Shown in pieces: positions 12,930-53,616 of a stretch of DNA of 64,000 nt (the first letter of the stretch is position 1; every line of letters starts with the position of its first letter). The notes under the pieces are model-generated. The model had not been told where the DNA came from, searched no databases, and was given only the letters and a program-made list of their open reading frames with translations. Origin of the DNA: an uncultured Candidatus Binatia bacterium. GTDB taxonomy: Bacteria > Desulfobacterota > Binatia > Bin18. The stretch lies in the NCBI GenBank assembly GCA_965242605.1, contig CBDESS010000004.1:96139-160138 (forward strand), read 5' to 3'. Made by a program: the position numbers and the translations under genes.

Positions 12930-14014
12930 ATGCGCAGGCATATGAGCATTGTGATCCTTGTGGCCATTGCAACCGTGCTGGGCCGGCCGGCGCTGGCCAA
13001 GGCCGGGCCGCCCGTCGCCCGGGGCGGGCTGACCGATGTGGCCGGGGTCAAGCTCGGCCATTACACCCTCAGTCAGCGGCCGACCGGCTGCACCGTCGTC
13101 CTGGTCAAAGACGGGGGGTCGCCGGGGTTGATGTGCGCGGCTCTGCCCCGGGCACGCGCGAGACCGACCTGTTGCGACCGGTCAGCCTGGTTGACCACGT
13201 TCACGCCATTGTGCTGGCCGGCGGCAGCGCCTTTGGCCTAGCCGCGGCAGAGGGCGTTGTTCAATACCTGGAAGAGAGCGACATCGGTTTTCTGACCCCG
13301 GCGGCAAAAATCCCGATTGTCCCGGCCGCCATTCTCCACGACCTCAACGTCGGCGACCCCCGCGTTCGCCCCAGCGCGGAATGCGGCTACCTAGCGGCCA
13401 AGGCGGCCACCAGCGGCCCGGTTGCCGAGGGCAATGTCGGGGCCGGAGCCGGGGCGACCGTCGGCAAGCTGGCCGGCCCCGGCCGGGCCATGAAATCCGG
13501 CCTGGGAACCGCCTCCATCCGCCTGCCGAGCGGCCTGACAGTGGCCGCGGTCGTGGCGGTCAACGCCCTCGGCGATATCATTGACCCCCAGACCAACCAG
13601 CTTGTGGCCGGCCTGCGCACCGAGGACGGCCGGCGGCTGGCCGACACCAGCCGCCGGCTGCGCTCCGCCGGTCCGACCAGCAGCCAGAGCGGGCAAAACA
13701 CCACCATCGGCATCATTGCCACCAACGCCCGGCTGACCAGGGTCCAGGTCACCAAAGTTGCCCAGATGGCCCACGACGGTTTTGCCCGGGCCATCAACCC
13801 GGTACACACGCCGTATGACGGCGACACGATTTTTGCCCGGGCCACCGGCACGTATCAGGAGGACAGGAGCAGCCTGGCAGGGACCCTGCATATTGGGGCC
13901 TTGGCCGCCGAGGTCATGGCCGAGGCGATTGTCCGCGCCGGGCGCGCCGCGGTCGGCATCCCCGGCTATCCCGCGACGCGCGATCTGACCCTGCCGGCCA
14001 GCCCCCAGAGCTGA
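12930..14014 (+). pseudogene. DmpA/peptidase S58 (L-aminopeptidase/D-esterase) gene with -1 frameshift in a G-run
   Basis: Frame A 12930..13241 gives signal peptide then GLTDVAGVKLGHYT...TGCTVVLVKDGG. Frame B continues GVDVRGSAPGTRETDLL...GSAFGL... to 14014. The switch lies in GGGGGG at 13113-13118. Confidence 0.7.
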
Positions 14015-14223
14015 TCCCATCCCCGGCAGCGGGCAGGATGAAGGAAACGGGCACAAGCCCCCACTGCTCTTCCACAATCCCGGTCATCCCTTAATCCTAC
14101 CAATCACAGTTCAGACACACACGGCCTGCATTGCCGAGACCGCCCTGATCCTGTAGAGGAGAGAGACCCACAGGCCGGCGGAGCAGCCCCAGGGCGACGG
14201 CCACGGCGAGGAGGACGGGACGC

Positions 14224-15453
14224 ATGATCGTCATGAATGAACATTATCTCCAGCTCCAGGCGTCGTACCTGTTTTCGGACATCGCCAAGCGGGTGGCCGC
14301 GTTTCAGGAACACCATCCAGACCGGGATGTCATCCGGCTGGGGATTGGCGACGTGACCCGCGGCCTGCCCGCGGCCTGCATTGCCGCCCTGCACGCCGCG
14401 GTGGACGAAATGGCCAAGGATGCGACGTTTCGCGGCTACGGCCCGGAGCTGGGCTACGAGTTTTTACGCCAGGCGGTTGCCGAGCACGACTTCCGGGCGC
14501 GTGGACTTGATATCTCCCCGGATGAGGTTTTTATCAGCGATGGGGCCAAGTGCGATTCGGGCAATTTTCAGGAACTGTTCGCCCCCAACACCCGCATCGC
14601 CGTACCCGACCCGGTCTATCCGGTCTATGTTGACACCAACGTCATGGCCGGCCGCTCCGCCGGCTGGCAGGACGGCCGCTACCAAGGGCTGGTGTATCTG
14701 GAATCGACCCAGGACAACAACTACATTCCTGCCCCGCCCCAGGCCAAGGTTGACGCCATCTATCTGTGCTTTCCCAACAATCCGACCGGCAGCATGGCCA
14801 CCAGGGAGCAACTCCAGCCGTGGGTAGACTATGCCAGGGACAACAAAGCCCTGATTCTGTACGACACGGCCTATGTCGAGTTTATCCGCGACGACAGCCT
14901 GCCCCAGAGCATTTATGAGCTGGAAGGGGCCAGGGAGGTGGCGGTCGAGTTTCGCAGCTTTTCAAAGACGGCCGGCTTTACCGGCACCCGCTGCGCCTAT
15001 ACCATTGTGCCCAAGCAGTGTCAGGTCTACGACTCGCAGGGCACGGCCTACGCCTTGCACGCCCTGTGGGACCGCCGCCAATCAACCAAGTTCAACGGGG
15101 TGTCGTATCCGGTCCAGCGGGCCGCGGAGGCGGTGTATTCCCCACAGGGCAGACGGCAGGTCCGGGAGCTGAGCGACTATTACATGGCCAACGCGGCCCT
15201 GATTCGCCAGACCATGAGCGGACTCGGCTACACCTGTGCTGGCGGTGAACACGCCCCGTATGTCTGGATCAAGGCGAACACAGACTCGTGGCAGTTCTTT
15301 GACCTGCTGCTGCACAAAGCCGGGGTAGTGTGTACCCCGGGCGCAGGTTTTGGCAAGTGCGGCGAGGGCTACGCCCGGCTCAGCGCGTTTAGCAGCCGCC
15401 AGAATGTCGAGACGGCCCTTGAGCGGATGAGCGCGGCCCTGAGCGGTGCCTGA
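14224..15453 (+). CDS. dapL: LL-diaminopimelate aminotransferase
   Basis: NEHYLQLQASYLFSDIAKRV...LGIGDVTRGLP...GYGPELGYEFLRQAV, the DapL-type class-I aminotransferase N-terminus; 409 aa. Confidence 0.8.
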   Translation: MIVMNEHYLQLQASYLFSDIAKRVAAFQEHHPDRDVIRLGIGDVTRGLPAACIAALHAAVDEMAKDATFRGYGPELGYEFLRQAVAEHDFRARGLDISPDEVFISDGAKCDSGNFQELFAPNTRIAVPDPVYPVYVDTNVMAGRSAGWQDGRYQGLVYLESTQDNNYIPAPPQAKVDAIYLCFPNNPTGSMATREQLQPWVDYARDNKALILYDTAYVEFIRDDSLPQSIYELEGAREVAVEFRSFSKTAGFTGTRCAYTIVPKQCQVYDSQGTAYALHALWDRRQSTKFNGVSYPVQRAAEAVYSPQGRRQVRELSDYYMANAALIRQTMSGLGYTCAGGEHAPYVWIKANTDSWQFFDLLLHKAGVVCTPGAGFGKCGEGYARLSAFSSRQNVETALERMSAALSGA

Positions 15454-15573
15454 AAAGACGCCTGGGGCGCGAAGGTGTTCAGAGACGGAACGCCAGCCGG
15501 GCGTCACGGCTGGTTGCCACACCAGAGCCCATCTCCGGGAGTCCCGTGCAGTAAGGCAGAGGAGGATAGCCAT

Positions 15574-19565: not shown

Positions 19566-20828
19566 GTGTTGGCAGAGAAAGAAGAGCGGAGCGGGGTGGA
19601 TGAGTGGCCCAAGATGCGGTTCAGTGACGCGGTTCTGATCAGTCCGCTGGTCCGTCTCGAACGCGGAAGACCCTACCCATTTGTCAATATGGCCGCCGTG
19701 AACGCAGGTTCCCGGTGTGCATACGCGCTTGAGCGACATGCCTATTCAGGCGGCGGGACACGCTTTCGGAGTGGCGACACACTCATGGCGTGGCTCACGC
19801 CTTGCCTGGAGAATGGCAAGATCGCCCGCTACTGCGCGCCTCATTCATCGGACACCGCGCACGGCTCAACGGAGTTCATCGTCATTCGAGGCCGCCCTAA
19901 CGTTACGGACACCGGGTTCGCCTATTACCTGACGCAATGGGAAGAGGTGCGTAATTACGCTATTGGCCAGATGACCGGCACCTCTGGACGCCAGAGAGTC
20001 CAGACGAAATCCCTGGACCATCTTACGGTCACAATCCCGCCCCCCCCCGAGCAGCGCGCCATTGCCCACCTCCTGGGCACGCTCGACGACAAGATTGACC
20101 TCAACCGCCGCATCAACGCCACCCTGGAAGCAATGGCTCGGGGGCTGTTCATCTCCTGGTTCGTCCACTTTGACCCCGTCCATGCCAAAGCCAGCCTGAA
20201 ACAACGCACGTCTCAAGGGGCGGGTGCTTGGCCGGTGGCACGGGCACGGGCCTATCTAGACCGGCTGGAGCCGGAGATTGCCGCCTTATTCCCGGATCGT
20301 TTTGTGGACTCGGAGTTGGGGCCGATTCCCGCCGGGTGGGCGGTCAAGCCGCTTGGCGATCTCATCGAACTCGCTTACGACAAAGCACTCAAGGCGGACA
20401 CCATTGTAGGTCGCAAGGGGAATCCCGGAACAGTCCCCTGGGCTGCCAGTGCGTACTTTCCCATTGACACGACATTTTATGTTGTTCCCAAGGATTCGGG
20501 AACGCCAAGCCTGCCCTTTCTGTTCTACGCCTTGCAAGGGCAAGGGCTGCCGGCCGTTGCTGCGGACTCGGCGGTGCCTGGCCTGAACCGAAACTTGGCC
20601 TCCCTCAACCAACAGGTGACGCCCCCGGCCCCTCTTGTTGCCCACTTTGGCGCACAGGTAGAGCGCTTCTTTGCACGCCGGCATGGCTTGGAGGAGGAGA
20701 GCTGCACCCTCGCCGCCCTCCGCGATACCTTTCTGCCCAAGCTGGTCTCGGGTAAGCTGCGGATACACTCAGGGTCAAGCGTGGAAAAAATCATGCCCGC
20801 GTTGTCAGACAATGGGAAAGTCGGATGA
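19566..20828 (+). CDS. hsdS: Type I restriction-modification specificity subunit HsdS (orphan, apparently intact)
   Basis: Two target-recognition halves with conserved spacer EQRAIAHLLGTLDDKIDLNRRINATLEAMARGLF and C-terminal ...LPKLVSGKLRI; 420 aa. No adjacent hsdM or hsdR. Confidence 0.8.
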   Translation: MLAEKEERSGVDEWPKMRFSDAVLISPLVRLERGRPYPFVNMAAVNAGSRCAYALERHAYSGGGTRFRSGDTLMAWLTPCLENGKIARYCAPHSSDTAHGSTEFIVIRGRPNVTDTGFAYYLTQWEEVRNYAIGQMTGTSGRQRVQTKSLDHLTVTIPPPPEQRAIAHLLGTLDDKIDLNRRINATLEAMARGLFISWFVHFDPVHAKASLKQRTSQGAGAWPVARARAYLDRLEPEIAALFPDRFVDSELGPIPAGWAVKPLGDLIELAYDKALKADTIVGRKGNPGTVPWAASAYFPIDTTFYVVPKDSGTPSLPFLFYALQGQGLPAVAADSAVPGLNRNLASLNQQVTPPAPLVAHFGAQVERFFARRHGLEEESCTLAALRDTFLPKLVSGKLRIHSGSSVEKIMPALSDNGKVG

Positions 20829-20843
20829 CGAAGAGGAGTAGCT

Positions 20844-22455
20844 ATGAGCATTGATATCGTTCAAGGCACTAGCAGTAAACCTGTGTCCACCGACGCGTTG
20901 GTTAAACTCATGTCGAGTCAGACCGATATAGATGGACAGATGTTCACCGGATACCCGATCATCAGCACAGCGGAAGGGCCTCATCTAATTGACGCTCTCC
21001 TCGTATCCCCTGACAAGGGAATTCTCGTGTTCGATCTCATTGAAGGACCCGATATCGGTGATTACGGATCGAGGCAGGATGATGCGGCCAACAAGCTTGA
21101 AGCTCGACTTAGACCCCATCGTGAACTAATGCGGGGCCGGAATCTCCGTATCCCGATTCATACGGTTTCGTTTGCGCCAGGCACGAGCGAGTTGCCCCAA
21201 GACGGTAGTAGTAGGCATCAAATCGCGAATCGCAGAGATACTCTCATACAAGTACTGGAACGTTTCGAGTGGGAGAATGGAAAGAGAAGTGTTTACAAGG
21301 CTGCTCTGTCTGCACTTGAGAGCATTTCGACGATTCGTAAGACCAAGACAAAACGGACGATCCAGCAAGAAGACTCTAGAGGTGCCAAGCTAAAAAACTT
21401 GGAAGATTCGATTGCCACGCTGGATGCCGAGCAACTGAAGGCGGTTGTCGAAACAGTCGAAGGAGTACAACGCATTCGTGGTCTGGCAGGCTCGGGCAAG
21501 ACCATTGTCTTGGCGCTTAAGGCTGCCTACCTTCATGCTCAACACCCCGAGTGGCGTATGGCCGTCACCTTCAACACACGCTCGCTCAAGGGACAGTTCC
21601 GACGTTTAATCAACAACTTCTCCCTTGAACAGACAGGCCAAGATCCCAATTGGGAGAACCTGCGCATTGTCAACGCCTGGGGGGCTCCAGGTGGCAGCAA
21701 ACGCGATGGCGTTTACTACGAGTTTTGTCGTGTGCACGATATAGAATACTGCGACTTCCAGTCAGCCAGAAGAAAATTTCCACCAGGAAAAGAGTTCTCC
21801 GGAGCCTGTGAACTTGCAGTCAGTCAGGCGCAGGAAGTGAAGCCAGTCTATGATGCGCTCTTAGTAGACGAGGCACAAGATTTTTCACCCGCCTTCCTCC
21901 AACTTTGCTACGCATTGCTAGACAATCACAAAAGATTAGTCTACGCATACGACGAGCTGCAAAATCTTTCTGAAGAATCCCTTCCTTCACCAAATGCCTG
22001 ACGGGGCGTTGATTCATGTGTTTTGACTATGACGGTCGGGACAGCCACCACCGGGAATTAGTACATCCTAAGTCTCACTTAACGCTCGGCCAATACGCGA
22101 ACTGCCGAATCTCCGGTAACGGCCCCAATGACGCCTTTCTGGTTTATCGACTTCATTCTCAGGAACTTCTACTGCACTGCGCATGCTGCCGAGTTTCCTG
22201 CACAGCAGGGTATGTTTATCGAGTCGATACTTCCAACCGAGCGAGGCGTGATTCATGTGGTTGTCCCATATGAGTAGCATGGCTAGTCTGAATGACTCCA
22301 CCGCTACCTTAGCGTTTCCGGGGAGCCTCGCCGGATGTATCGCCCACGGGCTGGGTATCGTCCCCGACACGCTGCTTCCCAAGCTTATTTTCGGAGGTCT
22401 AAGGAAGAGCCCAGATAGAAACGCAGGCCTCATACTTTTGACCTTCACCATTTGA
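20844..22455 (+). pseudogene. nuclease-helicase (NERD/PD-(D/E)xK-like N-domain + DUF2075/SF1 helicase core, Nhi-like), truncated and frameshifted
   Basis: First 385 aa intact (20844..22001): N-terminal IDALLVSPDKGILVFDLIEG nuclease-like motif, Walker A GLAGSGKT, ALLVDEAQDF. ORF stops at 22001 and continues in shifted frames (22016..22273, 22255..22455). Region visibly lower GC than flanks. Confidence 0.55.
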
Positions 22456-27521: not shown

Positions 27522-28331
27522 GTGCCACAAGCTGACACACCCTGGACAAGGCCGAGGCGGCAGAGTAAAGAAGAGGGTGTTTCGGTGACACTATGGAGAC
27601 AGTGCTTTCAGGATTGCGGTCCGCCTTCTGGGGTGCGTGTGGTTGACGCCCTCAGCCGCCTGCTGCCGTGCGAAGGCGTCGGGCTTATTCTGCTCAACCG
27701 CCGCAGCGAACAGGCTGAGCGGATTGCGGTCGGCGGCGGCTTTGCAGTCCCGGCCTCCACGGCTCTGGCCGCCGGCCAAGCCGAGGGCGGCCTGCTGCGC
27801 CAGGTCTGCGACCGGGAGCCGCTGGTGTTGGACACACAAACCTCATCCCAGCCCAAGGCCCTGGGCGACCTCGCCGAGCACAGCTTGCTCATCACGCCGG
27901 TCATGCAGCCAGAGTATCCGCAGCCCTTGGGCTGCCTCCTCGTCGCCGACCACGCCGAGGGGTTCTCTGCCGAGACGGTCGGCCTGCTGACCGCGGTGGC
28001 CCGGCGCACCGCCCTGGCCATTGAAAATGCCCAGCTGTACGATGCGCTTGAAAAAGAGCCCCGGCAGCTGCGGGGGTCTGCTGCATACGGTCATCATCAC
28101 CCAGGAAAAAGAGCGCAAACATCTGGTTGAACAGTGGCACGCTCCCTCAGCAAGAAACTGTTTGGCATCCTCCAGGACTTTCGGCGCAGCCAAGACCTGT
28201 TTCTCCAGCGGGTGCCCGAGGCCGAGGGGCAGATCCACCGCCTGGCAGCCGAAATAGACGGGATAGCGGCCCTTGTGCGCAGCCTGATCGACGAGCTGCG
28301 GCCCGCCAGCCTGGACAATGCAATGATATGA
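27522..28331 (+). pseudogene. GAF-domain sensor histidine kinase, 5' part (GAF + HisKA_3 dimerisation region; frameshifted and interrupted)
   Basis: GAF domain in frame 0 to about 28070; the HisKA_3 H-box region is split over two frames (28021.. and 28134..); reading ends ...LRPASLDN then a premature stop at the insertion edge. Confidence 0.7.
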
Positions 28332-28419
28332 CTTGTTCCAAGTAGAAACGCGGGTCGTTCCAGCGTTCGTCGTCAAGATTTTCAATATCCGGCGGGAAAG
28401 GTTTTTAGGATGGGAGCAT

Positions 28420-28827
28420 TCATACGAATTCTTCGTCGTCCAAACCACTTGGTGAGGCGTTTGCTGGAGAGCGTTGTGTTTCGGTGAAAACGCTGAGGGT
28501 CTTGAAGATTTCACGGATTTGCTTCTGTGCATTATTTCGCGTGGATAATGTGGAAGCATTTCCTACGCGTGCGTCCAACCCTTGGTGGTGTATATGGAAA
28601 CGGCAATGGAGTAAGATGTGATACTGATCTGCGAGTTGGCGGAGAAGGGTCAGGCGTGGGTCTTTCTTCTCAAGGATGCCTGCATCCCTCATCGCATTGC
28701 GAAACCAGCAGTAAATCGTCGTGGGTTTGTATTTCTCAAGGATTGCTGGATGGAAATCGCTGTCTTCAAGTTCTTGCTCAAATGGAAACTCAGCAAAGAC
28801 TTGATGAGCCTTTTTCCATGTCGTCAA
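28420..28827 (-). CDS. hypothetical protein (inside insertion)
   Basis: 135-aa ORF, last of four co-directional ORFs in the AT-rich insert. Confidence 0.2.
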   Translation of the reverse strand: MTTWKKAHQVFAEFPFEQELEDSDFHPAILEKYKPTTIYCWFRNAMRDAGILEKKDPRLTLLRQLADQYHILLHCRFHIHHQGLDARVGNASTLSTRNNAQKQIREIFKTLSVFTETQRSPANASPSGLDDEEFV

Positions 28828-28879
28828 TTTCTGTGATTTTCAATCCAGAAATGTTGGATGCTTTTCGCGCAATCGGCAT

Positions 28880-29170
28880 TTAGGTACTCCGTTGAAGGTC
28901 GCCGTACATCTCATTCCAATTCTGTGTAGGAGCAGTCCACTGGATACGTTCCTGGTCTGTGATTTCAGATTTGGCCACGGAGTTCCAAGTGGGAGTAAAG
29001 CCCATGCGTTCAAGGCAAATGAATTGTCGTACAGTTTCTGCTATGAAGATTGCCATGTTCTGTTTCAAGTTGTTATATGACACAGACAACGCACGAATTT
29101 TGCAGACACGCGCTCCACAGTATGCAATCACATCGGCAGTTCGTTGGGCTTCTGTGTCAATGTTCCACAT
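28880..29170 (-). CDS. hypothetical protein (inside insertion)
   Basis: 96-aa ORF co-directional with 29191..29742; may be a frameshifted continuation of the same gene. Confidence 0.2.
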   Translation of the reverse strand: MWNIDTEAQRTADVIAYCGARVCKIRALSVSYNNLKQNMAIFIAETVRQFICLERMGFTPTWNSVAKSEITDQERIQWTAPTQNWNEMYGDLQRST

Positions 29171-29190
29171 GGCCGCCTTGTTCGCTCTAG

Positions 29191-29742
29191 TTATTCCGTA
29201 TGGAAAAGCTTCATACCTTGAGATGCTTCATCCCAAATGAAGTGAGCAGTTTCTCCAGAACTTGGAAAGTCGGTGATTTGACACCGCGCATGTGGTGGAG
29301 TGTTAGTCAAGAAGTCTTCACCAAAGATCGTGACCCTAAAGCTCCAGCGAGAAACCAAAGTTTGTCCGTCGACAATGAGCGACACCCTATGTTCTCCGTC
29401 GCCAAGGAGATTCCAGTTCCAGAGCGCAAGAAATCCGGTATTACGATTTCCGCATGTAGTTTCGGTATCTGCACGCGACAATCCGGTTGCTTGGATAGGA
29501 ATTTCGGTTTGTGTTTCTTCAAGAAGAAGAGCAATGCGGTCGTACTGCGAAATGTCGCAAATCCATCCGCGAATGTTTCCGATGCCACTTTGGTACGAGC
29601 CTTCGCCGGGTTCTTCAAGAATTCCACGAAGAGGGGCTGATGGAGGATCTTCAGGGTCAGGGTTTTGTGGTGTTGGTGTTGGGGAGGAAATAAACGGGTT
29701 CGGTCGGTGTGGACGAATACCAAAGTTCGGAGCACGACACAT
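29191..29742 (-). CDS. hypothetical protein (inside insertion)
   Basis: 183-aa ORF, same strand as neighbouring insertion ORFs; Pro-rich N-terminal region; no recognised domain. Confidence 0.25.
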   Translation of the reverse strand: MCRAPNFGIRPHRPNPFISSPTPTPQNPDPEDPPSAPLRGILEEPGEGSYQSGIGNIRGWICDISQYDRIALLLEETQTEIPIQATGLSRADTETTCGNRNTGFLALWNWNLLGDGEHRVSLIVDGQTLVSRWSFRVTIFGEDFLTNTPPHARCQITDFPSSGETAHFIWDEASQGMKLFHTE

Positions 29743-29906
29743 GGCAGATATGAGGAGAGCCAGGGATTCTTCCGCTTCGTAGATCAGGCGGCGAGTCAGT
29801 GCATCCTTCCGAATTCCCAGCGATGTAAGGAGCTTTCCGCATGACCCAACTCATAATATGGTCTGTTGCCGTTTTCTACCCATTGCCCTCGATGTCGTCC
29901 TTCGTG

Positions 29907-30323
29907 TCAGTTTTGGAGAGCTCTTGCAAATCCTGGATGGTGGTGTTGTAGTTTACGGAGGCAGACTTGTCGTCCGGCCTCAACTTCGCTATGGGTATGA
30001 TTTGGATACCCCAATGTGGACAATGCAGTATTCCACCAGAGTTGATCGCCGACTTGGAGGTAATGTTCCCAGGCGATAGTGGAGTTTCTTTCGTTTGGAT
30101 TGAGATGTAATCCAGGGTCGGAAAGCCATCCATGATGCTCGTCATCCAAAGGGGCATTTGCTGGACAGTTTCCGTTGTCGTCAGGAAGGATATTCCTGTT
30201 GCTTCCGCCGTTAGTACATAAAGTATGGCTGTTCGCAAGAGCAGGGAGGAGGGCGAGCATGAGGAGAATGGCTACGAGCATGGTGATCAACAGGATAAGT
30301 TCACGGGATTTGAGCGTGGACAT
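29907..30323 (-). CDS. hypothetical membrane-anchored/secreted protein with prepilin-like hydrophobic N-terminus (inside insertion)
   Basis: MSTLKSRELILLITMLVAILLMLALLPALANS... resembles the N-termini of prepilin-type/DUF1559 proteins; no canonical G-F-T-L-I-E cleavage motif. Confidence 0.3.
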   Translation of the reverse strand: MSTLKSRELILLITMLVAILLMLALLPALANSHTLCTNGGSNRNILPDDNGNCPANAPLDDEHHGWLSDPGLHLNPNERNSTIAWEHYLQVGDQLWWNTALSTLGYPNHTHSEVEAGRQVCLRKLQHHHPGFARALQN

Positions 30324-30554
30324 AATAGTTTTCCTTTCGATTCGTGGGCTTCTGTAAACCGCCGCCCCTCAGGACGGGTCACAATGAAAACGCTCCGAAG
30401 AACGGGGGACACCAGGAGGTTGCATGGTGTTAGGCTGGTTCCTGACAATATTTCACCACACTGTATACGCAGTTGGCAAGGAGATAGTAGCATAAAAGTG
30501 GGGTCGTGGATGGGTTTCTAGAAAGAAAATCAAGAATAAACCCCTACGAAGTCT

Positions 30555-30996
30555 GTGGGTCGTCCTCAGGTCCGAGACAATTTCGGCTTTGTAGCTGCGC
30601 TGCAAGAGTATGCGGACAAGCTGAGCCAGCGGGGCCTGTTTCGGGTCACTGTTCAGGCCGACGACTCGATCTTGCCCCTGCCGTCCGCGGCCACCCTGAC
30701 CCTGTTCCGGGTGACGCAAGAAGCGCTCGATAGCCTCGACAAGCACGCCCATGCTCAACACGTTGAGATCGCCGTCGTCCAGGAACACAACGGGGTGTCG
30801 CTGCGCATCAAAGACGACGGTCAAGGTACCTACCTCGATCAGCGTTCACACGGTCAGTACAGCCTGCTCTATATGCGGCGAGCGGGTCAAAGCGTGTGGA
30901 GGCACCTTGCAGGTCTCAGGCGCGCGTGGGCACGACAAGAGGTCCGGGTCAGCGTGCCGATTGCCTGACCGCGAGCCCCCGAAGGAGTGCGTATGA
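30555..30996 (+). pseudogene. sensor histidine kinase, 3' part (HATPase_c domain; frameshifted)
   Basis: DNFGFVAALQEYADKL...TLFRVTQEALDSLDKHAHAQHVEIAVVQ...LRIKDDGQG in one frame; the G2-box-like ...GGTLQVSGARG is in a +1 frame (30751..30996). Confidence 0.65.
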
Positions 30997-32146: not shown

Positions 32147-35100
32147 TCAGCTCGCCCAGCCGGCAGACAACACCTCGGCCTGCTCCAGCACGGTCCGGGT
32201 TGCCCGCTCCTGCTTGTCGGGTGAGTAGCCGTGCTTGCGCAGGGTGCGTTTGACCAGCCGGCGCAGATTCTCCCGCACATGCTCGCGCAGCGTCCAGTCG
32301 ATTGTTACGGCGTTGCGTACAGTTTCCACCAACTCACGCGCGATGCTACGCAGGGTCTCATCGCCCAGTACCCGCACCGCGCTGTCGTTGGTCTCCAGCG
32401 CGCCGTAAAAAGCCAACTCGTCGTCCGACAGCCCCAGCGCCTCGCCCCGGGTACACGCCTCCCGCCGCTCACGCGCGAGCTGGATCAACTCCTCAATCAC
32501 CTGCGCGGCCTCAATCACCCGGTTCTGATAGGCAGCGTGTCTTCCAGCATTGCGGCGAACGACCGTGCCTGGACGACGTTTTTGCTGCGACGGGTCGCCA
32601 GCTCGCTCTTGAGCAGCTTGTGCAACAGTTCAACCGCCAAGTTGCGCCGCGGCATATCCCGTACCTCGGCCAGGAACTCGTCTGACAGGCCCGAAATATC
32701 GGGCTTGTCCAGGCCGGCCGCGGCAAAGATGTCGATCACCCCCTCGGACGCCACCGCGTGCGAGATAATCTGGCGCACGGCGTGGTCCAGCCCCTCATGA
32801 TCCAGCTCCTCTTGGGACCGCCCGTCGGCCGGCGCGCGTTTGGCCAGTACCGACCCGACGGCCTGAAAGAAGGCGACATCGTCGCGGATGCGCAGCGCGT
32901 CTTCGTGCGGCACAGCCAGGGCGAAGGCTTGGGACAGTTCACGGACCGCCCCCACGCAGCGCTCCTTGCCCTTGTCCTGGGCCAGGATGTGTTCCTGGGC
33001 GGCCGGCAGCAGACCTAGCCGCTCTGCGGGCGGGCCGGTGGTCCAGCCGGAGCGGGCCAGGCCGTGGAACAGGCCGCAGCAGACTTCGTACTTCTCCTGC
33101 ATGGCCGCTACGGCCTCGTTCTGGTTGAGCGCAGTCTGTCCCGTGCCGCCGCTCTCGGTGTAGGTGGCCAGCGCGCGCTTGAGTTCAGGGGCGAGGTCCA
33201 GGTCATTGACGACGAGGCCACCCGGTTTGTCCTTGAACACCCGGTTGGCCCGGGCAATCGCCTGCATCAGCGCGTGGCCGCGCATCGGCTTGGCGAGGTA
33301 CATGGTGTGCAGGCTCGGCGCGTCAAAGCCGGTCAGCCACATGTCGCGCACCAGCACCATGCGGAGCGGGTCGTCGGCGTCGCGGAAGCGGCTGGCCAGG
33401 GTCTCGCGCCGGGCTTTGGTGCGGATATGCGGCTGCCAGTCGGGCGGGTCGGACGCCGCCCCGGTCATCACTACCTTGAGCCTGCCCTTGGCGTCGTCTT
33501 CGTCATGCCAATCGGGACGCAGGGCCACCAGCCGGCGATAGAGGTTGATGCAGACGCGCCGGCTCATGCCCACCACCATTGCCTTGCCCTCCAGCGCTTC
33601 AAGCCGGACCTCAAAATGGCTGATAATGTCCTGGGCAATGAGGGCTAGGCGCGTGTCAGCCCCGACGACCGCTTCGAGCTGCGCCCATCTGGTTTTGAGT
33701 TTTTCCTTGACCACGCTCTCCTGGCCCTCGGTCACTTCTTCAAAGGCAGGGTCGATTCTGGGCCGTTGGCTCTCGTTCAGATTGAGCTTGGCCAGCCGGC
33801 TCTCGTAATAGATCGGGACGGTGGCCCGGTCCTCAACCGCGCGCTGGATGTCGTAGACGCTGATGTAGTCGCCAAATACCGCCCGCGTGTTGGCGTCCCG
33901 GCATTCTATCGGCGTGCCGGTAAAGCCGATAAACGAGGCCCGGGGCAGAGTCTCGCGCATATGGCGCGCATAGTCGTCGATAAAGTCGTACTGGCTGCGG
34001 TGCGCCTCGTCGGCAATAACCACGATATTGCGCCGCTCCGACAGCAGGGGGTGGCGGTCGCCCTTCTCTTGGGGAAAGAACTTCTGAATTGTGCTGAACA
34101 CCACCCCGCCCGATGCTGTCGCCAGCCGGTCCCGCAGGTCGGCCCGGCTCTCGGCCTGGACCGGCGGCTGGCGCAGCAGCTCCCGGCAGCGGGCAAAGGT
34201 GGCGAAGAGCCGATCGTCAAGATCGTTGCGGTCGGTCAGCACCCAGCAGCGTCGGGTTGTGCATGGCCGGCTCACGGATGACCCGCCCGGCATAGAACGC
34301 CATGGTCAGGCTTTTGCCGGCACCCTGGGTATGCCACACTACGCCGATACGCCGGTCGCCCGTTCTCCCGCCGGGCCGGCGGCCAGACGTATAGCCCCGG
34401 CTGCCCTCGCTGACCGCCTCTCCCTGCATTTCGGCCGCCCGCAGGGTTTCGGCAAGCGCTGTCTCGACCGCGTGAAACTGGTGGTAGCCGGCCATTTTCT
34501 TGACCAGCCGGCCGCTGCCGTCGTCCTCAAAGACGATGAAGTCGCGCACTAGACTGAGGAAGCGCTTAGGCGTGCAGACGCCGGCCAGCAGGACGTGCAG
34601 TTCGGGCAGGTGCGGGTCGGCCAGGGTTTCGCCCGGGATTGTGCGTCAGGGCTTGAACCACTCCCGCCCCGCGGTCAGGGTGCCAATACGCGCTGTCAGA
34701 CCGTCAGACGCGATCAGCACCGCGTTCAGGCTGAACAGCCCTGGCAGTTCGGCTTTATAGGTCTGCAACTGCTGCCAAGCCGTCCAGGATGGTAGCATCC
34801 TTGTCGGTCGGATTCTTGAGTTCGATGAGGCCGAGCGGCAGGCCGTTGGCGAACAGCACCAAGTCGGGCCGGCGCTCGTGCTTGTTCTCGACCGCGGTGA
34901 ACTGGTTGACCGACAGCCAGTCGTTATTCGCTGGCTCGTCATAATCAAGCACCCGGGCCGGCGCGCCCCGGATATCGCCGTCAGCGGCCCGGTACTCGAC
35001 CGCCGCTCCGTCCACCAGCATACGGTGGAAGGGACGGTTGCGGGTTTCCAGCGTTGGTCCTTGCGGGCGGGTCAGCGTGCGGTAGGCGTCGTCCAGCACC

Positions 35101-35302
35101 TCGGCAGGCAGCTCCGGGTTGAGACGGGTCAGGGCATCGCGCAGACGCCTTTCCAGCACGACTTGGCCATAGTCCACGCGCTCTGCGGCCGGCGTATCGG
35201 CGCAATGTCCGGCCCATGGGCTACGCCCCAGCCCTGGCCGGCCAGCCAGTCAAGGGCGGCGGCTTCAACGGTGGATTCGGTCACTCTGGGCATGGATGAC
35301 AT
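32147..35302 (-). pseudogene. hsdR: Type I restriction enzyme R subunit HsdR, multiply frameshifted
   Basis: N-term [20 protein letters not shown]... (ATG 35302); helicase motifs ...[29 protein letters not shown]; DUF3387 C-terminus 32147..32518. Spread over at least 5 ORF fragments in different frames (35177-34755, 34549-34217, 34293-32515, 32518-32147); 1-bp deletion visible at 32518. Confidence 0.8.
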
Positions 35303-35351
35303 GATGGGGTGAGCGGGGCGAAGGCGGCAGCTTCAACATCGGTGCAGACGC

Positions 35352-36779
<1,428 letters not shown>

Positions 36780-46374: not shown

Positions 46375-47518
46375 ATGGAGCACCACGATTGCATTGTTAT
46401 CGGCACCGGCGGGGTGGGCAGCACGGCGCTGTTTCACCTAGCCCGGCGCAGGGTGCGAGTCCTGGGGATTGACCGGTTTACGCCCGGCCACGACCGGGGC
46501 AGCTCACACGGCCACCCCCGCCTCATTCGCCTAGCCTATCTAGCCTATATGGAACACCCGGACTATGTGCCGCTGCTGCGGCGGGCGTATATCCTGTGGG
46601 CCGAGCTGTCCGAGCGGTGTGGGCAGCGGTTGTACACCGAGACCGGCCTGCTTGAGGTCGGGCCGGCTGACGGTTTCATAGTCCCCGGGGTGCGGGCCAG
46701 CGCCCGCGCTCACGCACTCCAGGTTGATGAGCTGAGCCACGGCTAAGGCCGAACAGCGCTTTCCCGGCTTTCGGGTGCCCCCGAGCGTGACCGCGGTGTT
46801 TGAGCAGCGGGCCGGCTATCTGCGCGTCAAGGCGTGTATTCTGGCCCATATCAGTCACGCTCAGCGGGCCGGCGCTCAGGTGCGCAGCAACGAAATCGTC
46901 CGGGCTTGGCGGACCGACAGGCGGGGGGTGATTGTCACCACCGACCGGGCCGAGTACGCCGCCGAGCGGCTCATTATCACCGCCGGGGCGTGGGCCGGCC
47001 AACTGCTGGGCGAGCTGGGAGTTCCCTTTCGTATCCGGCGCAAGTCGCTGTTCTGGTACGAGACCGACGATCCAGTCTATGGGGAGTCGGGCTGCCCATG
47101 CTATTTCTATGAGACCCCGGAGGGCAACTTTTACGGTTTTCCGCCCATTGACGGGTTTGGCCTCAAGGTGGCCGAGCACTCGGGCGGACAGCCTGTCAGC
47201 GACCCGCTCGCCGTTGATCGGAACATCTCCGCACACGACCAAGACCAGGTCAAGCGCTTTCTGGCCCGCTATCTGCCGGGGGTCAGCCGGCGACGCCAAC
47301 ACCAGGTGGTGTGTCTGTACACCATGAGCCCAGACGAACATTTTGTACTTGATCGGCACCCCGAGCATCCGCAGGTCGCTTTTGTGGCCGGGCTGTCGGG
47401 CCACGGTTTCAAGTTTGCCAGCGCGCTCGGTGAACTCCTCAGCCAGTTGGTCCTTGACGGTCAGACCTGCTCGGCGGCCGAATTTCTGGGCTGTCAGCGT
47501 TTTTTAGCCAAGCGCTGA
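46375..47518 (+). pseudogene. solA: N-methyl-L-tryptophan/sarcosine oxidase (MSOX/SolA family), +1 frameshift
   Basis: RBS AGGAG then ATG 46375; MEHHDCIVIGTGGVGS FAD fold to stop at 46744; the protein continues in frame +1 from 46748 (AEQRFPGFRVPPSVTAVFEQRAGYLRV...) to 47518; likely single-nt insertion near 46735. Confidence 0.7.
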
Positions 47519-47967: not shown

Positions 47968-48060
47968 ACGCGGTTGCAGCATACGACAAAAACACAAAAA
48001 AGAGAAGGAGATTCGCTGACATACTACCGTTAGCGTTTTTTGTCTTGACAATACCAGATA

Positions 48061-48865: not shown

Positions 48866-48896
48866 GGGTATCCATTTGAGGTAAAAATGGATACCC
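48866..48896 (+). promoter_or_regulatory. perfect 10-bp inverted repeat GGGTATCCAT-N11-ATGGATACCC enclosing the RBS and start codon of a small membrane ORF
   Basis: The loop contains GAGG, the 3' arm contains ATG (48887); it sits in a local AT-rich patch with TTGACA at 48851-48856. Confidence 0.4.
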
Positions 48897-49225
48897 TTAT
48901 GGATGGTATGGAGATTCTTGTCGTGGTGATCGTGCTGGGGTGGTTGGTCTGGTTACTGTTCTCCCCTCCGCGCCGGCCAAAAAAAGGTCCGCTCCAGGAC
49001 TGCGCTGAAAAGGGGGCCGCGGTGCTGGCGTCTTCAGCAGACGCGTTGGGGAAGGTTGCGGACGCGCTCAATTGGGTTGGGCGAGAGGTTGAAAAGCCTG
49101 TACGGCAGAAGCTGAGAGAGGAGGCGGCTGCGCGGCTGAAGCACGAGCGGCTGGGCGAAGCTGGTGGCGCGCAAAATGGAGCAGCTGCGGGCCCGGGCCA
49201 AAGCGCAGCCGCCCGCGCGAGGTGA
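48887..49225 (+). CDS. small single-pass membrane protein (hypothetical)
   Basis: ATG 48887 after GAGG; MDTLMDGMEILVVVIVLGWLVWLLF TM helix then charged, Ala-rich tail; 112 aa. Confidence 0.35.
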   Translation: MDTLMDGMEILVVVIVLGWLVWLLFSPPRRPKKGPLQDCAEKGAAVLASSADALGKVADALNWVGREVEKPVRQKLREEAAARLKHERLGEAGGAQNGAAAGPGQSAAARAR

Positions 49226-49531
49226 CGAGCATGGCCCATAAGACATTCCCCGCAGATTTTCTGGCGTCTGAACTGGTCAGCTGCTTGATTATGCCAGCAG
49301 TCCCGGCCGCGACGGCCAGCGTTACGTCCCTGTTTGGCCGGCAGGTTGACGTCAATCTTCTCACGGCAAGCTGGCAAGGCGAGATGGAATTTGACCCAAT
49401 CCCGCTGAAGGACGCTGGCAATCACCCGGAATTGCAGAGACTGAAAGACGAAATTCTGCCGTTTCTTGCGTTCAGCCAGATCCCAGGCAACACCTGGGAC
49501 ATCGATATCCGCAAAAGAGGAGGTGGTGGCT

Positions 49532-52345
49532 ATGGCGGAGAGAGAGCCGAAGATGTGGCAGCAAGACGAGTTCTCAGACGAGCGGGAGATGGGCTTGATA
49601 AGTGCCGAGCCCCCAGGCCGTGCGTCAGGCGGCGTTCGCCTCACCCGCCACTTTACCCGGGCGGGTGAGCAACCCTTCTCGGCGGTCGAATGGGAGCGGC
49701 GCAGCGCGGTCATCTCGGGAGAAAACGGGGAGGTCGTGTTTGAGCAGCACGAGGTCGAAATCCCCAAAGCCTGGTCTCAGTTGGCGACCAATGTCGTTGT
49801 CTCAAAATACTTTCGGGGCCCGCTCGGGACCCCTCAGCGGGAACACAGCGTGCGCCAGTTGATCGGCCGGGTCGTCGATACCCTCACCGCCTGGGGCAAA
49901 AAGGACGGCTATTTTGCCGACGACGACAGCACCCAGATTTTCAGCGACGAACTCAGCCATCTGTTGGTTGAGCAGAAGCTGGCCTTCAACAGCCCGGTGT
50001 GGTTCAATGTCGGGGTTGAGCCGCAGCCGCAGTGCAGCGCGTGTTTTATTCTGTCGGTCAACGACCAGATGGAGTCGATCCTCGATTGGTATCGCAAAGA
50101 GGGTTTTATTTTTAAGGGCGGCTCAGGCTCAGGGGTCAACCTGTCCCGCATCCGCTCGTCCAAAGAGCGTCTGTCGAGCGGTGGGGCCGCCTCTGGACCG
50201 GTCTCGTTTATGCGGGCGGCCGACGCGTCGGCGGGAGTCATTAAATCGGGTGGCAAGACGCGCCGGGCGGCCAAAATGGTCGTCCTGAATGTGGACCACC
50301 CGGATATTGTCGAATTTATTCAGTGCAAGGCCGAAGAAGAGCGGAAAGCCTGGACGCTGATTGAGGCCGGCTACGACGCATCAATTGACGGGGCGGCCTA
50401 CAGCTCGGTCTTCTTTCAGAACGCCAACAATTCGGTCCGGGTCAACGATGCCTTTATGCACGCGGTGGTTGACCGCCGGCCCTGGTCAACCCGGTTTGTC
50501 ACCACCGGACATGAGCATGAGACTTTTGCGGCAGCAGAGTTGTTACGCAAGATCGCCGAGGCGACCTGGCAGTGCGGTGATCCCGGCATGCAGTTCGATA
50601 CCACGATCAACGCCTGGCACACCTGCCCCAACAGTGGCCGGATTAACGCCAGCAATCCGTGCTCGGAATACATGCACCTTGACGATAGTGCGTGTAATCT
50701 GGCCTCACTCAACCTCATGAAGTTCCTCAAGGACGACGGCGGATTTGACACCGCGGCCTTCAAACACGCGGTTGATATCAGCATGACCGCCCAAGACATC
50801 ATCGTTGATAACTCCAGCTATCCCACGCCTGACATTACCGATAACGCCAGAGCCTTTCGCGAGCTGGGCCTGGGCTACGCCAACCTGGGCGCGCTGCTGA
50901 TGTCCCTGGGCCTGCCCTACGATTCCGAAGCCGGACGGCAGTACGCCGGCGCGATTACGGCCCTGATGACTGGCCAAGCCTACCTCCAGTCGGCCCGTAT
51001 CGCCCAACAGCTCGGCCCGTTTGCCGGCTATACGAGCAACCGTGAGCCTATGCTGGCGGTGATCGACAAACACCGCTCGGCCGCCCATCAGCTTGACCCG
51101 TCTCTGGTGCCGCTGGAGCTGTTATCCGAGGCGCGCAGAGCCTGGGATGAGGCCCTGGCCCTAGGTCAGCGCGCCGGCTACCGCAACTCGCAAGCGACAG
51201 TATTGGCCCCAACCGGGACCATCGCCTTTATGATGGACTGCGATACAACCGGGGTTGAGCCGGACATCGCCTTGATCAAATACAAACGCCTAGTCGGCGG
51301 TGGGCTGCTGAAACTGGTCAACACCACGGTTCCCCACGCGCTGGCGCGGCTCGGCTACGCCAGCCGGGAGATCCAGGCCATTGTTGAATATATTGATGAG
51401 CAGGAGACGATTGAGGGCGCTCCTGGACTGCGCGATGAACACTTGGCGGTGTTTGACTGCGCCTTCAAACCGGCCCGGGGGAGCCGGGCGATCCACCACC
51501 TGGGGCATTTGCGGATGATGGGGGCGGTCCAGCCCTTTCTCTCGGGCGCGATCTCCAAAACGGTCAATCTGTCCAACGACGCCACGGTGGAGGATATTGC
51601 TGACGCCTATATGGAAGCCTGGCACCTGGGGCTCAAGGCGGTCGCCATCTATCGTGACGGGTGTAAGCGGGTGCAGCCGCTGGGGACGCACAAGAAGTCC
51701 GTCACGGTGGACAAGCCGTCCTCTACGGAGTTCAAACAGGAGAGGCGACGCCTGCCTATGGACCGCGCCGCCGTCTGTCATAAATTTGAGGTGGTCGGAC
51801 ACGAGGGCTATATCCATGTCGGTTTTTATGAAGACGGGACGCCCGGAGAAATCTTTATCCGCATGGCCAAGGAAGGTAGTACCATATCGGGCCTCATGGA
51901 CTCGATCGCGACCCTGACCTCTGTGGCCTTGCAGTACGGCGTACCGCTGGACACTTTGGTGAACAAGTTTGGCCACGTCCGCTTTGAGCCGTCCGGGTTT
52001 ACCAGGAACCCGGATATCCCATACGCAAAATCGCTGATCGACTACATCTTCCGCTTTCTAGGCACCCGTTTCTTGTCAAGCGAGTTGAAAGAGGAAATCA
52101 GCCTGGTCGAAACGGTGACCGCCGCACAGCCCGCGGCTCAGACCCCGGGCCTCGCCCCTGTCGAGCCGGCGGCTGACCGCCCAGCCCCCGCGGAGGAGGT
52201 CAAGGTCTCGCACGACTTCCCGCCGGCCGCCACCTGGCAGGCACAGGCGGACGCGCCGAGCTGCGCCGAGTGTGGCTCAATCATGATCCGAAACGGGTCA
52301 TGCTACAAATGTCTCAACTGTGGATCGACGAGCGGCTGCTCGTAA
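49532..52345 (+). CDS. nrdJ: class II adenosylcobalamin-dependent ribonucleotide reductase
   Basis: RBS GAGGAGGTGG then ATG 49532; ...NPCSEYMHLDDSACNLASLNL... active-site region; C-terminal Cys4 zinc ribbon CAECGS...CLNCGS; 937 aa. Confidence 0.9.
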   Translation: MAEREPKMWQQDEFSDEREMGLISAEPPGRASGGVRLTRHFTRAGEQPFSAVEWERRSAVISGENGEVVFEQHEVEIPKAWSQLATNVVVSKYFRGPLGTPQREHSVRQLIGRVVDTLTAWGKKDGYFADDDSTQIFSDELSHLLVEQKLAFNSPVWFNVGVEPQPQCSACFILSVNDQMESILDWYRKEGFIFKGGSGSGVNLSRIRSSKERLSSGGAASGPVSFMRAADASAGVIKSGGKTRRAAKMVVLNVDHPDIVEFIQCKAEEERKAWTLIEAGYDASIDGAAYSSVFFQNANNSVRVNDAFMHAVVDRRPWSTRFVTTGHEHETFAAAELLRKIAEATWQCGDPGMQFDTTINAWHTCPNSGRINASNPCSEYMHLDDSACNLASLNLMKFLKDDGGFDTAAFKHAVDISMTAQDIIVDNSSYPTPDITDNARAFRELGLGYANLGALLMSLGLPYDSEAGRQYAGAITALMTGQAYLQSARIAQQLGPFAGYTSNREPMLAVIDKHRSAAHQLDPSLVPLELLSEARRAWDEALALGQRAGYRNSQATVLAPTGTIAFMMDCDTTGVEPDIALIKYKRLVGGGLLKLVNTTVPHALARLGYASREIQAIVEYIDEQETIEGAPGLRDEHLAVFDCAFKPARGSRAIHHLGHLRMMGAVQPFLSGAISKTVNLSNDATVEDIADAYMEAWHLGLKAVAIYRDGCKRVQPLGTHKKSVTVDKPSSTEFKQERRRLPMDRAAVCHKFEVVGHEGYIHVGFYEDGTPGEIFIRMAKEGSTISGLMDSIATLTSVALQYGVPLDTLVNKFGHVRFEPSGFTRNPDIPYAKSLIDYIFRFLGTRFLSSELKEEISLVETVTAAQPAAQTPGLAPVEPAADRPAPAEEVKVSHDFPPAATWQAQADAPSCAECGSIMIRNGSCYKCLNCGSTSGCS

Positions 52346-52413
52346 GCAACAGTACCACGAAACACGGCTCTGGCCCACGGACACGGGCGAGAGCCCCAAA
52401 GGGAGGACGGTGT

Positions 52414-53136
52414 ATGCCGATATTCGAACGGGGTGATATCAAGCTGTACTATGAAGAACATGGGGCAGGTTTTCCGATTTTGCTCATCGCCCCGGGCGGC
52501 ATGCGCTCCGCGGTGTCCTTCTGGGATCAGGCCGCCTGGAACCCCATTCCACAGCTCGCCGCCCACTACCGCGTCATTGCCATGGACCAGCGCAACGCCG
52601 GTCAATCCAGTGCCCCGATCAGGGCAAGCGATAGCTGGCACGCCTATACCGAGGATCAGCTCGCCCTGCTTGACCACCTCGGTGTTGATCGCTTTCATAT
52701 CGCCGGCATGTGTATCGGCGGCCCGTACTGCATGGGCCTCATCAAAGCGGCCCCGCAACGGGTCACCTCGGCGATTGTCTTTCAGACAATCGGTCTGTCA
52801 GACAACCGTCAGGCCTTCTACGACATGTTTGACGGCTGGGCTGAAGCCCTCAAGCCGGACCGCCCGGAGGTGAGTTCCGAGGTCTGGGAAACATTCAAAA
52901 CGTCAATGTACGGTGGGAATTTTCTGTTTAACGTGTCAAAAGAGTTTGTCGCCCAGTGCTCCACGCCCCTCCTCGTCCTGCTCGGCAACGACCTCTACCA
53001 TCCGCCCGAAACCTCGCGCGAAGTCGCCCGTCTAGCCCAAAACGCCACGCTTATTGAACACTGGAAAGAGCCCCACGAGCAGCCCGCGGCCCAACGGGCC
53101 ATAGCAGACTTTCTGGCCCAACACACGCCACGCTAG
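52414..53136 (+). CDS. alpha/beta-hydrolase fold protein
   Basis: RBS GGGAGG then ATG 52414; ...ILLIAPGGMRS...HIAGMCIGGPY nucleophile elbow. Confidence 0.8.
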   Translation: MPIFERGDIKLYYEEHGAGFPILLIAPGGMRSAVSFWDQAAWNPIPQLAAHYRVIAMDQRNAGQSSAPIRASDSWHAYTEDQLALLDHLGVDRFHIAGMCIGGPYCMGLIKAAPQRVTSAIVFQTIGLSDNRQAFYDMFDGWAEALKPDRPEVSSEVWETFKTSMYGGNFLFNVSKEFVAQCSTPLLVLLGNDLYHPPETSREVARLAQNATLIEHWKEPHEQPAAQRAIADFLAQHTPR

Positions 53137-53149
53137 AGAGGAGCACCCG

Positions 53150-53616
53150 ATGAGTGAGACCAAAACTTCCCAACTTCCGCAGTGGATTACCGACCACCTG
53201 CAACGCTATCGTGAAACCGATGGGGCCAATGGCCATATGTAGGACTCTACTCCGGTCGGCGGTCCGGGGCGGGGCTCCTCCCGACCCTCCTGTTGACAAC
53301 CCGCGGCCGCCGCTCAGGCACGCCCATCACCATGCCGCTGATCTACGGTGAGGCGAACGGCAACTATATCATTGTCGCCTCAAAGGGTGGCGCGCCACGG
53401 CATCCCGGCTGGTATCTGAACTTGGCCGCCAACCCCCGGGTTGAGGTGCAGGTCCGCGACAGACATTTTCAAGCCACCGCCCGCACCGCTGCCGGGCCAG
53501 AGCGAGCCAGCCTGTGGTACCAGATGCGCGAGCTCCATCCGCCCTACGATGACTATCAGGCGAAAACCGAGCGGGAGATTCCGGTGGTTGTCGTCAAGCC
53601 GCTCAGCGAGGGCTAG
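53150..53616 (+). pseudogene. F420H2-dependent nitroreductase family (DUF385/Ddn-like), frameshifted
   Basis: RBS GAGAGGAG then ATG 53150 gives MSETKTSQLPQWITDHLQRYRETDGANGHM then TAG; frame -1 continues ...LLPTLLLTTRGRRSGTPITMPLIYGEANGNYIIVASKGGAPRHPGWYLNLAANPRVEVQV... to 53616. Shift lies within about 53236-53270, a G-rich stretch. Confidence 0.65.

Follow-up and report, generated by a model that had tools for sequence, protein, structure and literature searches.

We analysed a 64,000-nucleotide stretch of DNA (referred to below as the window) from an uncultured Candidatus Binatia bacterium (contig CBDESS010000004.1 of assembly GCA_965242605.1, positions 96,139 to 160,138 of the forward strand). 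Our preferred reading, to which we give a probability of about 0.85, is that the window is a region of a Candidatus Binatia genome in which dispensable accessory genes stand at different stages of decay. A preliminary description of this DNA had proposed that seven non-essential genes carry frameshifts. This was upheld for six genes, which were split between reading frames relative to their orthologues: those for a DmpA-type aminopeptidase, a sarcosine oxidase-like protein (solA), a DUF385 nitroreductase-like protein, a histidine kinase, and the HsdM and HsdR subunits of a Type I restriction-modification (R-M) system. The seventh, a helicase gene, was truncated and not frameshifted. The accompanying suggestion of genuine pseudogenisation gained support from several independent lesions, of kinds other than read errors, in each of hsdR, hsdM, the kinase gene, the DUF385 gene and, probably, solA.

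The nature of these lesions and their distribution carry this reading. Fourteen small frameshifting indels were located in the six genes, whereas the 47 intact genes (45.8 kb) had none; when 14 indels were scattered at random over 53 genes in a simulation, six or fewer genes were hit with a probability of ~1e-5. The lesion spectrum comprised slippage-type indels (±1, and 5- and 9-bp tandem duplications), Trp codons converted to stops by G>A changes, kilobase-scale deletions and one insertion, and among these the nonsense substitutions, the perfect 5- and 9-bp tandem duplications and the kilobase-scale deletions and insertion are not made by read errors. Just one of the 14 small indels (G4>G5 in the kinase gene) changed the length of a run of four or more bases, and all 45 homopolymers of at least six bases in intact open reading frames (ORFs) were in frame, including A7 and T7 runs and a C9 run in hsdS. 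It had been suspected that two shifts lying in G runs were homopolymer errors, but neither proved to be a change in run length, as DmpA had lost a C and DUF385 had gained a duplicated CGGGG. Over ~5.3 kb of intact coding sequence, comparison with four conspecific contigs showed zero indels; relative to these contigs, the sole indels were two in intergenic DNA, one in the hsdM relic and one in DmpA. Three hsdM lesions were replicated independently in the assembly of one of these contigs. In the genes other than DmpA and solA, we regard the lesions as almost certainly genuine.

Sequences used for comparison

The similarity of NrdJ, DmpA, the kinase and solA placed the window in an uncultured Candidatus Binatia bacterium. 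Whether the lesions were real or erroneous was judged without reads, by means of short conspecific metagenome contigs and syntenic relatives. Three exactly overlapping loci of a sister chromosome, OZ243961.1 (L085, L083 and L001), were stitched into a 55-kb sequence that was collinear with the window from 5.7 to 60.2 kb, with a nucleotide identity of 72-88% in the individual aligned blocks and ~82% overall. A closer relative (~90% amino-acid identity; 3.62-Mb contig) was represented by locus L087, spanning 0-26.8 kb of the window, and a third relative by locus L002, spanning 44.6-60.2 kb. The four short conspecific contigs all came from other metagenome assemblies: L081 and L082 were 99.3% identical to the window at 11.9-14.4 kb, L090 was 99.9% identical at 24.8-26.9 kb, and L091, from the assembly of a different sample, was 99.3% identical at 36.3-39.1 kb. 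Comparison with sister genomes had been suggested in the preliminary description, and comparison with intact orthologues confirmed that the reading frames of the six genes are disrupted.

For domain assignment, raw frame translations were submitted to Pfam with stops replaced by X. Plots of third-position guanine-cytosine (GC) content did not tell coding frames apart in the window DNA, which is 62% GC. A chimeric query of pgm, bioA and nrdJ against genome contigs recovered nrdJ loci alone, yet these were enough to establish the phylum and two syntenic relatives. With a chimeric protein query made of segments of solA, DUF385, the kinase and the helicase, kinase orthologues were found but close relatives of solA, DUF385 and the helicase were missed, and exact-protein look-ups gave no match for pgm, the DmpA fragments, a luciferase-like gene, the gene adjacent to DUF385 or the 95-amino-acid gene adjacent to solA.

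Piecemeal decay of the Type I R-M genes

The most heavily damaged genes included hsdR and hsdM, with five or more lesions each. The hsdR pseudogene (32147..35293, minus strand) was delimited by tblastn with Deinococcus and Rhizobium HsdR and by its split Pfam domains. It was collinear with residues 7-1027 of the 1032 residues of full-length Deinococcus HsdR, in five frame segments separated by shifts at ~35198, ~34784, ~34243 and ~32536. The HSDR_N, SWI2_SNF2 and T1RH-like_C domains were each divided between frames, and a TGA codon occupied 34646-34648, where homologues have Trp. The hsdM pseudogene (35350..36723, minus strand) was defined by alignment to Rhizobium HsdM, by Pfam and by contig L091. 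It carried a -1 indel at 36455, +1 indels at ~36426 and ~36297, and TGA stops at 36703-36705 and 35598-35600, with the Rhizobium protein having Trp at one of these positions and Phe at the other. The HsdM_N and N6_Mtase domains lay in different frames, the N6_Mtase match stopped at profile position 246 of 311, and no homology was seen beyond residue 395 of 519, where a TPR-like tail (35350-35540) took over. Contig L091 shared the stop at 36703-36705 and the shifts at ~36426 and ~36297. It did not share the deletion at 36455, where its frame still matches the homologues; because of this absence, we regard the 36455 deletion as a newer hit in an already dead gene.

The specificity subunit was preserved at another site in the window as an orphan. 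The hsdS gene (19566..20828, plus strand) was an uninterrupted ORF of 420 amino acids with a Methylase_S match, the conserved centre of which aligned to Rhizobium HsdS. Its C9 run (20040-20048), the longest run in the window, encodes PPP in a conserved linker and is in frame. This run served as our internal control against homopolymer error, although it could, in principle, itself be a slippage-prone tract. Immediately downstream lay the helicase gene (20844..22001, plus strand), which had been described as a frameshifted nuclease-helicase. We found no frameshift; instead, residues 1-385 of a ~720-residue family with a UvrD-like ATPase domain (homologues of 700-725 amino acids) were kept and the C-terminal half was lost, leaving Pfam matches to UvrD-helicase positions 2-57 and AAA_19 only. 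The family was full length in all sufficiently long metagenome loci, and residues 386-723 had no match anywhere in the window. We considered whether the missing half lies inside a low-GC insert in the kinase gene (described below), and rejected this idea, as no match to residues 386-723 was present there.

Together, hsdS and the helicase gene formed a ~3-kb segment (19489-22465) within an intergenic spacer of 10 nt; in L085 and L087, this spacer contains no insert. This segment lay 13 kb from the hsdM and hsdR relics, on the opposite strand. In approximately one-sixth of 80 metagenome loci (for example L162, L165 and L169), the helicase family was found between hsdS and hsdR, and a related operon of Rhizobium pRL11 has the order hsdM-hsdS-accessory-hsdR, the accessory gene there encoding an FRG protein. 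It is plausible from these gene orders that a single ancestral hsdM-hsdS-helicase-hsdR operon was split by rearrangement. No long repeats linked the two sites, and the GC content of the helicase gene (51%) was much below that of hsdM, hsdR and hsdS (61-66%). At the orthologous site of the sister chromosome OZ243961.1, only stubs remained: ~260 bp from the 3' end of hsdR and ~190 bp from the 5' region of hsdM. These stubs indicate that the R-M system predates the split from the sister, in which it would have been removed by deletion, whereas in the window it decayed piece by piece. A working Type I system would have intact hsdM, hsdS and hsdR in one locus, an arrangement that was absent from the window; this R-M locus is a relic and not a working system.

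A fragmented histidine kinase gene

The histidine kinase gene, of the GAF/HisKA_3 type, was disrupted by four 1-bp indels, a deletion and an insert. Its 5' part (27593..28319, plus strand) and 3' part (30576..30968, plus strand, containing HATPase_c) were identified by comparison with the 576-residue orthologue P0122; the alignment of the window kinase to P0122 began only at residue 215. Of the 5' end, the start codon plus 15 codons were kept, followed at ~27638 by an out-of-frame deletion of ~600 bp that removed the N-terminal ~200 amino acids (595 bp of the sister genome are absent). Farther downstream, a +1 in a G run (G4>G5, 28072-28076) and a -1 at 28144/5 together scrambled the H-box, placed it in another frame and introduced a stop, while the 3' part carried a +1 at ~30877 and a -1 at 30937/8. 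After frame repair, the window branch of this gene was 2.3-2.9 times as long as the sister branches.

The two parts were separated by an insert of 2,256 bp (28320..30575) that has a GC content of 48.6% and is missing from the sister genome. A direct repeat of 6 bp, GACAAT, stood on either side of the insert (28314-28319 and 30576-30581). The insert had no terminal inverted repeats, none of its ORFs had a Pfam match, it matched no Rfam family, and no relatives of it were found in plasmids or in JGI metagenomes. It could represent a fragment of foreign DNA or a mobile element of a type not recognised so far.

We also observed that the kinase gene (28072-28145 and 30877-30938) and hsdM (36426-36455) contained paired +1 and -1 shifts 30-70 bp apart, in which the downstream frame was restored and the sequence between was scrambled.

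Lesions in solA and in the DUF385 reductase gene

The solA pseudogene (46375..47518, plus strand), which resembles genes for sarcosine and N-methyltryptophan oxidases, switched frame relative to intact orthologues in L001 and L002. The break proposed at about 46735 was located at 46737/8, where comparison with the DNA of both relatives identified a +1 change (C>CC, 46737-46738). Positions 1-94 and 123-353 of the DAO domain lay in different frames, and the single-frame, full-length DAO domain of an MSOX/MTOX-type flavin adenine dinucleotide-dependent oxidase was absent, whereas the genes of the relatives were intact and encoded 377-379 amino acids. A perfect 9-bp tandem duplication (CTAGCCTAT at 46531-46539 and 46540-46548) inserted the residues LAY into a conserved RLIRLAYMEHPDY motif and was unique among 101 homologues. 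Furthermore, the substitution E152K fell at an invariant column, with E in 120 of 120 homologues, and the window branch after frame repair was 1.7-2.3 times as long as the sister branches. A dedicated solA search returned no conspecific allele, the best match being 89% identical. The solA frameshift is very probably genuine.

Gene loss extended beyond solA itself. In both L001 and L002, solA was followed by S-Me-THD-like and hydantoinase-A-like genes (with overlap of the solA stop and the next start in L002, which also carries copies of hydantoinase A and B), and no trace of these two genes was detected 3' of solA in the window (47494/47518). On the other side of solA, a region of ~570 bp separated it from a gene for a 95-amino-acid HNH-like protein. 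This region contained a 33-nt tandem repeat (45833-45937) in three overlapping copies that were 97-100% identical, and its ORFs had no Pfam match.

The DUF385 gene, encoding a putative F420H2-dependent quinone reductase (53150..53616, plus strand), had been predicted to break at about 53240-53270, and we found it disrupted at 53240-53274 by two lesions. Codon 31 was changed from TGG to TAG (53240-53242), and a tandem duplication of CGGGG (53265-53269 and 53270-53274) shifted the frame by +5. The intact L002 orthologue reads HMWDSGPVGGPGLLPTLLL; against its sequence ...GHMWDSGPVGGPGLLPTLLL, the window has TAG for the Trp codon and the duplicated CGGGG. The best Pfam score was obtained by a repair that restored the W and removed one CGGGG. 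In place of an uninterrupted ORF of ~150 amino acids over the F420H2_quin_red profile (PF04075), only positions 23-129 were found in one ORF. Correction of the G runs would leave this gene broken, because the TAG stop would persist. The copy of DUF385 in L001 was wrecked independently.

A single deletion in DmpA

The gene for the DmpA, or P1-family, aminopeptidase (Peptidase_S58; 12930..14014, plus strand) differed from the others in that a single 1-bp deletion split its Pfam profile. As had been proposed, the frameshift lay at the G6 run at 13113-13118, with Peptidase_S58 positions 3-46 in one frame and 39-301 in another, so that no frame held the full-length domain. Once repaired, the window protein was 99% identical to the intact, 361-residue P0001. 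Seven Gs at 13113, which the preliminary description would have taken as a sign of an intact gene, are not the ancestral state. The two conspecific contigs L081 and L082 and both outgroups have GAC GGG GCG GTC (D-G-A-V) at this site, so that GGGGCGG is present in four sequences, and the window lacks the C between 13116 and 13117.

Three amino acid changes in DmpA were derived on the window branch (V128I, Y137H and L304R). For two of these, the derived H and R were unseen among 119 homologues, which had only F/Y/I/L and L/V/I/M, respectively, at these sites. Y137H and L304R are only suggestive of relaxed selection, and a relative-rate test was not decisive, as the branch ratio of 1.66 was no outlier. 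Over 11915-14445, the terminal branch to the window from L081 and L082 showed six non-synonymous to three synonymous derived changes, divided as 3:1 in pgm and 3:2 in DmpA. This 6:3 ratio, which is close to the neutral expectation, could result from very recent divergence, weak selection or consensus noise. Because the G6 arose by loss of a C, and because two contigs of 99.3% identity are intact, DmpA is either a recent strain-specific knockout or an error. We lean towards a genuine strain-specific knockout, in which case the deletion is probably very recent.

Intact genes and corrected gene labels

The essential genes read cleanly, as had been proposed. EF-G, NrdJ, MrdA, RodA, MreD and HisF covered their NCBIfam models end to end or near full length, and Pgm and BioB matched the loci of the relatives in a single frame over essentially their full length. 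The bioFADB genes were also clean, in that BioF, BioA and BioD were uninterrupted ORFs of normal length, with single-frame matches wherever the decayed sister copies allowed. Some gene labels in the preliminary description were misplaced: 15475-17721 encodes a TonB-dependent receptor and nrdJ is located at 49466-52345, while the supposed mre genes at 55765-58815 are the hopanoid genes hpnG, hpnB and hpnA.

Two other features were noted near these genes. A tRNA-Leu gene (anticodon TAA; 2343-2431, minus strand) lay directly 3' of the EF-G gene and was the sole Rfam or ARAGORN match in the window. Upstream of nrdJ, a segment of ~1.55 kb (48026-49576) had no counterpart in L001 or L002, contained ORFs without a Pfam match and belonged to no Rfam family.

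Alternative explanations of the lesions

One alternative is that sequencing or assembly indel errors, such as long-read homopolymer miscalls, made the frameshifts and that the genes are intact in the organism. The genomes of the closest relatives are long-read style circular contigs, and the source assembly might be long-read too; the missing base that leaves G6 in DmpA (intact in the conspecific contigs), the one extra C that breaks the solA frame and the G4>G5 change in the kinase gene all fit such an origin. This explanation does not account for the rest of the data, as 13 of the 14 small indels leave runs of four or more bases at their length, the long runs of intact genes (even C9) are in frame, conspecific contigs show zero indels in intact coding sequence, the lesions are clustered and accompanied by nonsense codons, perfect duplications and kilobase-scale events, and three hsdM lesions recur in an independent assembly. 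We therefore consider error very unlikely to have made the frameshifts and essentially excluded as the explanation of the whole pattern. For individual lesions the odds differ: error is unlikely for the solA +1 and rather doubtful, if a more serious prospect, for DmpA, which alone among the genes is compatible with assembly error because it combines a single 1-bp deletion with an intact conspecific allele. A related explanation holds that polymorphic populations of co-existing strains were collapsed into a consensus contig, which would make the lesions chimeric artefacts. In its favour, related samples contain two or more strains close to the window (99.3% and 99.9% identity), and DmpA is polymorphic (intact versus deleted). 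We find it highly improbable, since the mixing of strains gives rise neither to nonsense codons and tandem duplications nor to repeated frameshifts that are limited to a few genes, the window-derived single-nucleotide polymorphisms are evenly spread over pgm and DmpA, and the hsdM lesions are common to different strains.

The least probable of the alternatives is that the split genes still function, either through programmed ribosomal frameshifting or transcriptional slippage or as phase-variable contingency switches. Phase variation of Type I R-M genes is known from some bacteria; in the window, the DmpA lesion falls in a G6 tract, a C9 tract is present in hsdS, and shifts in the kinase gene and hsdM come as frame-restoring pairs. 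However, the ancestral and conspecific DmpA sequence is GGGGCGG and not a length-variable tract, and G6 is short for efficient polymerase slippage. Stops lie between the paired shifts and the kinase H-box is scrambled, while slippage could not overcome the in-frame stops, truncations and 2.26-kb insert in the other genes. Neither a slippery heptamer nor a stimulatory structure was evident, though no search for either was made. For five of the genes, slippage or phase variation is already largely refuted.

Some observations weigh against the decay of dispensable genes as we read it. Most concern DmpA, for which L081 and L082 carry an intact 361-residue allele and which has one lesion only, a 1-bp deletion in a G-rich context. 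The acceleration of its window branch is modest (1.66-fold) and equalled by one intact gene, and the adjacent pgm also has three non-synonymous changes on the window branch, at sites variable among relatives. The DmpA break could thus be an assembly error or a minority variant. In addition, our searches yielded no conspecific sequence covering the solA, DUF385, kinase or hsdR lesions, and that these genes are non-essential is something we infer from gene function and from loss in relatives.

Stages of decay and gene loss in relatives

Despite these points, decay of dispensable accessory genes remains the reading that we prefer, and the number of lesions per gene suggests an order. The oldest relics would be hsdM, hsdR and the GAF histidine kinase gene, with many independent lesions; solA and the DUF385 reductase gene, with two or three lesions, would be intermediate; and the helicase gene is a truncated stump. 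In such a scheme, purifying selection would stop once a gene was no longer needed and mutations would pile up, and housekeeping neighbours would stay clean as their mutants were removed. Signs of relaxed selection were found in the excess branch length of the kinase gene and solA, the change at an invariant site in solA, and the multiple lesions in DUF385, hsdR and hsdM.

Related genomes have lost other genes. In OZ243961.1, bioF was truncated at its 5' end, bioA was frameshifted and had lost its 3' part, bioD was 5'-truncated and bioB was kept (L083 16619-18036, syntenic with window 37399-40678). In that chromosome, a gene for a 784-residue coenzyme A (CoA)-transferase occupies the place of the bioF 5' end. 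In L087 (7045-7395), a deletion of ~2.1 kb fused the remnants of two CaiB-like CoA-transferase genes, both of which are intact in the syntenic part of the window (7922-10030). Conversely, no remnant was found at window 54198-54316 of a 497-residue FAD-linked oxidase that is present in L001 and L002. Because related genomes lost different genes, we interpret the pattern as ordinary lineage-specific gene loss and not as a designed system.

Relics made up approximately seven of 54 window genes (~13%), and the syntenic 55 kb of the sister had a similar load. For a free-living bacterium, this relic density is rather high, as a figure for one window and not a genome-wide rate. It might be proposed that this lineage and its close Binatia relatives are in early, genome-wide reductive evolution under weakened selection. 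We consider this distinctly unlikely, although the proportion of relics, several whole-gene deletions relative to two relatives, the 6:3 ratio and the loss of biotin genes in the sister would be compatible with it. If true, the lifestyle would be a bottlenecked or dependent one, in a phylum whose members are regarded as generalists living freely.

For annotation, the ORF fragments should be treated as pseudogenes, to be neither "corrected" by polishing nor counted as metabolic capacity, with DmpA as an exception until it is confirmed at the read level. The capacities not to be counted in this Binatia genome are a sarcosine/N-methyl-amino-acid oxidase, an F420-dependent reductase, a two-component sensor, a Type I R-M system and an aminopeptidase. 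The comparison also hints that close Binatia genomes differ in the pathways being shed, such as biotin synthesis in the sister. More generally, true decay can be told from errors of assembly without reads, by the use of short conspecific metagenome contigs together with syntenic relatives.

Comparison with known systems

The artefacts of long-read metagenome-assembled genomes share with the window the splitting of ORFs by single-base indels, and one lesion (the kinase G4>G5) does lie in a run. However, homopolymer artefacts occur in proportion to homopolymer content and gene length, in essential genes as in others, whereas the long runs of the window are clean and its lesions are clustered, mixed in type and partly reproduced in another assembly. 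Reductive genomes, of which Mycobacterium leprae, Sodalis and recent symbionts are examples, resemble the window in their many pseudogenes and whole-gene deletions and in the near-neutral ratio of non-synonymous to synonymous changes. They differ from it in that this 64-kb sample had no sign of insertion sequence expansion, AT drift or loss of core functions, and its housekeeping, cell-wall, hopanoid and biotin genes are intact.

Closer parallels are provided by decaying Type I R-M and defence islands, since Pfam matches and alignments to the systems of Rhizobium pRL11 and Deinococcus pDATS03 allow hsdM, hsdS and hsdR to be recognised in the window. An accessory gene between hsdS and hsdR occurs likewise in pRL11 and in about one-sixth of the helicase-bearing metagenome loci, but the window operon is dead and divided over two sites. 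Among bacterial pseudogenes in general, dispensable or horizontally acquired genes are broken in the same ways (by frameshifts, nonsense codons, truncations and insertions) beside intact housekeeping neighbours, with the same differences in relics between close genomes and the same deletional follow-up, although the local relic density of the window is high for a free-living bacterium. Lerat and Ochman, and Kuo and Ochman, reportedly described pseudogenes arising from failed or abandoned accessory genes. The features of the window match those of ordinary bacterial pseudogenes and of a decaying Type I R-M or defence locus.

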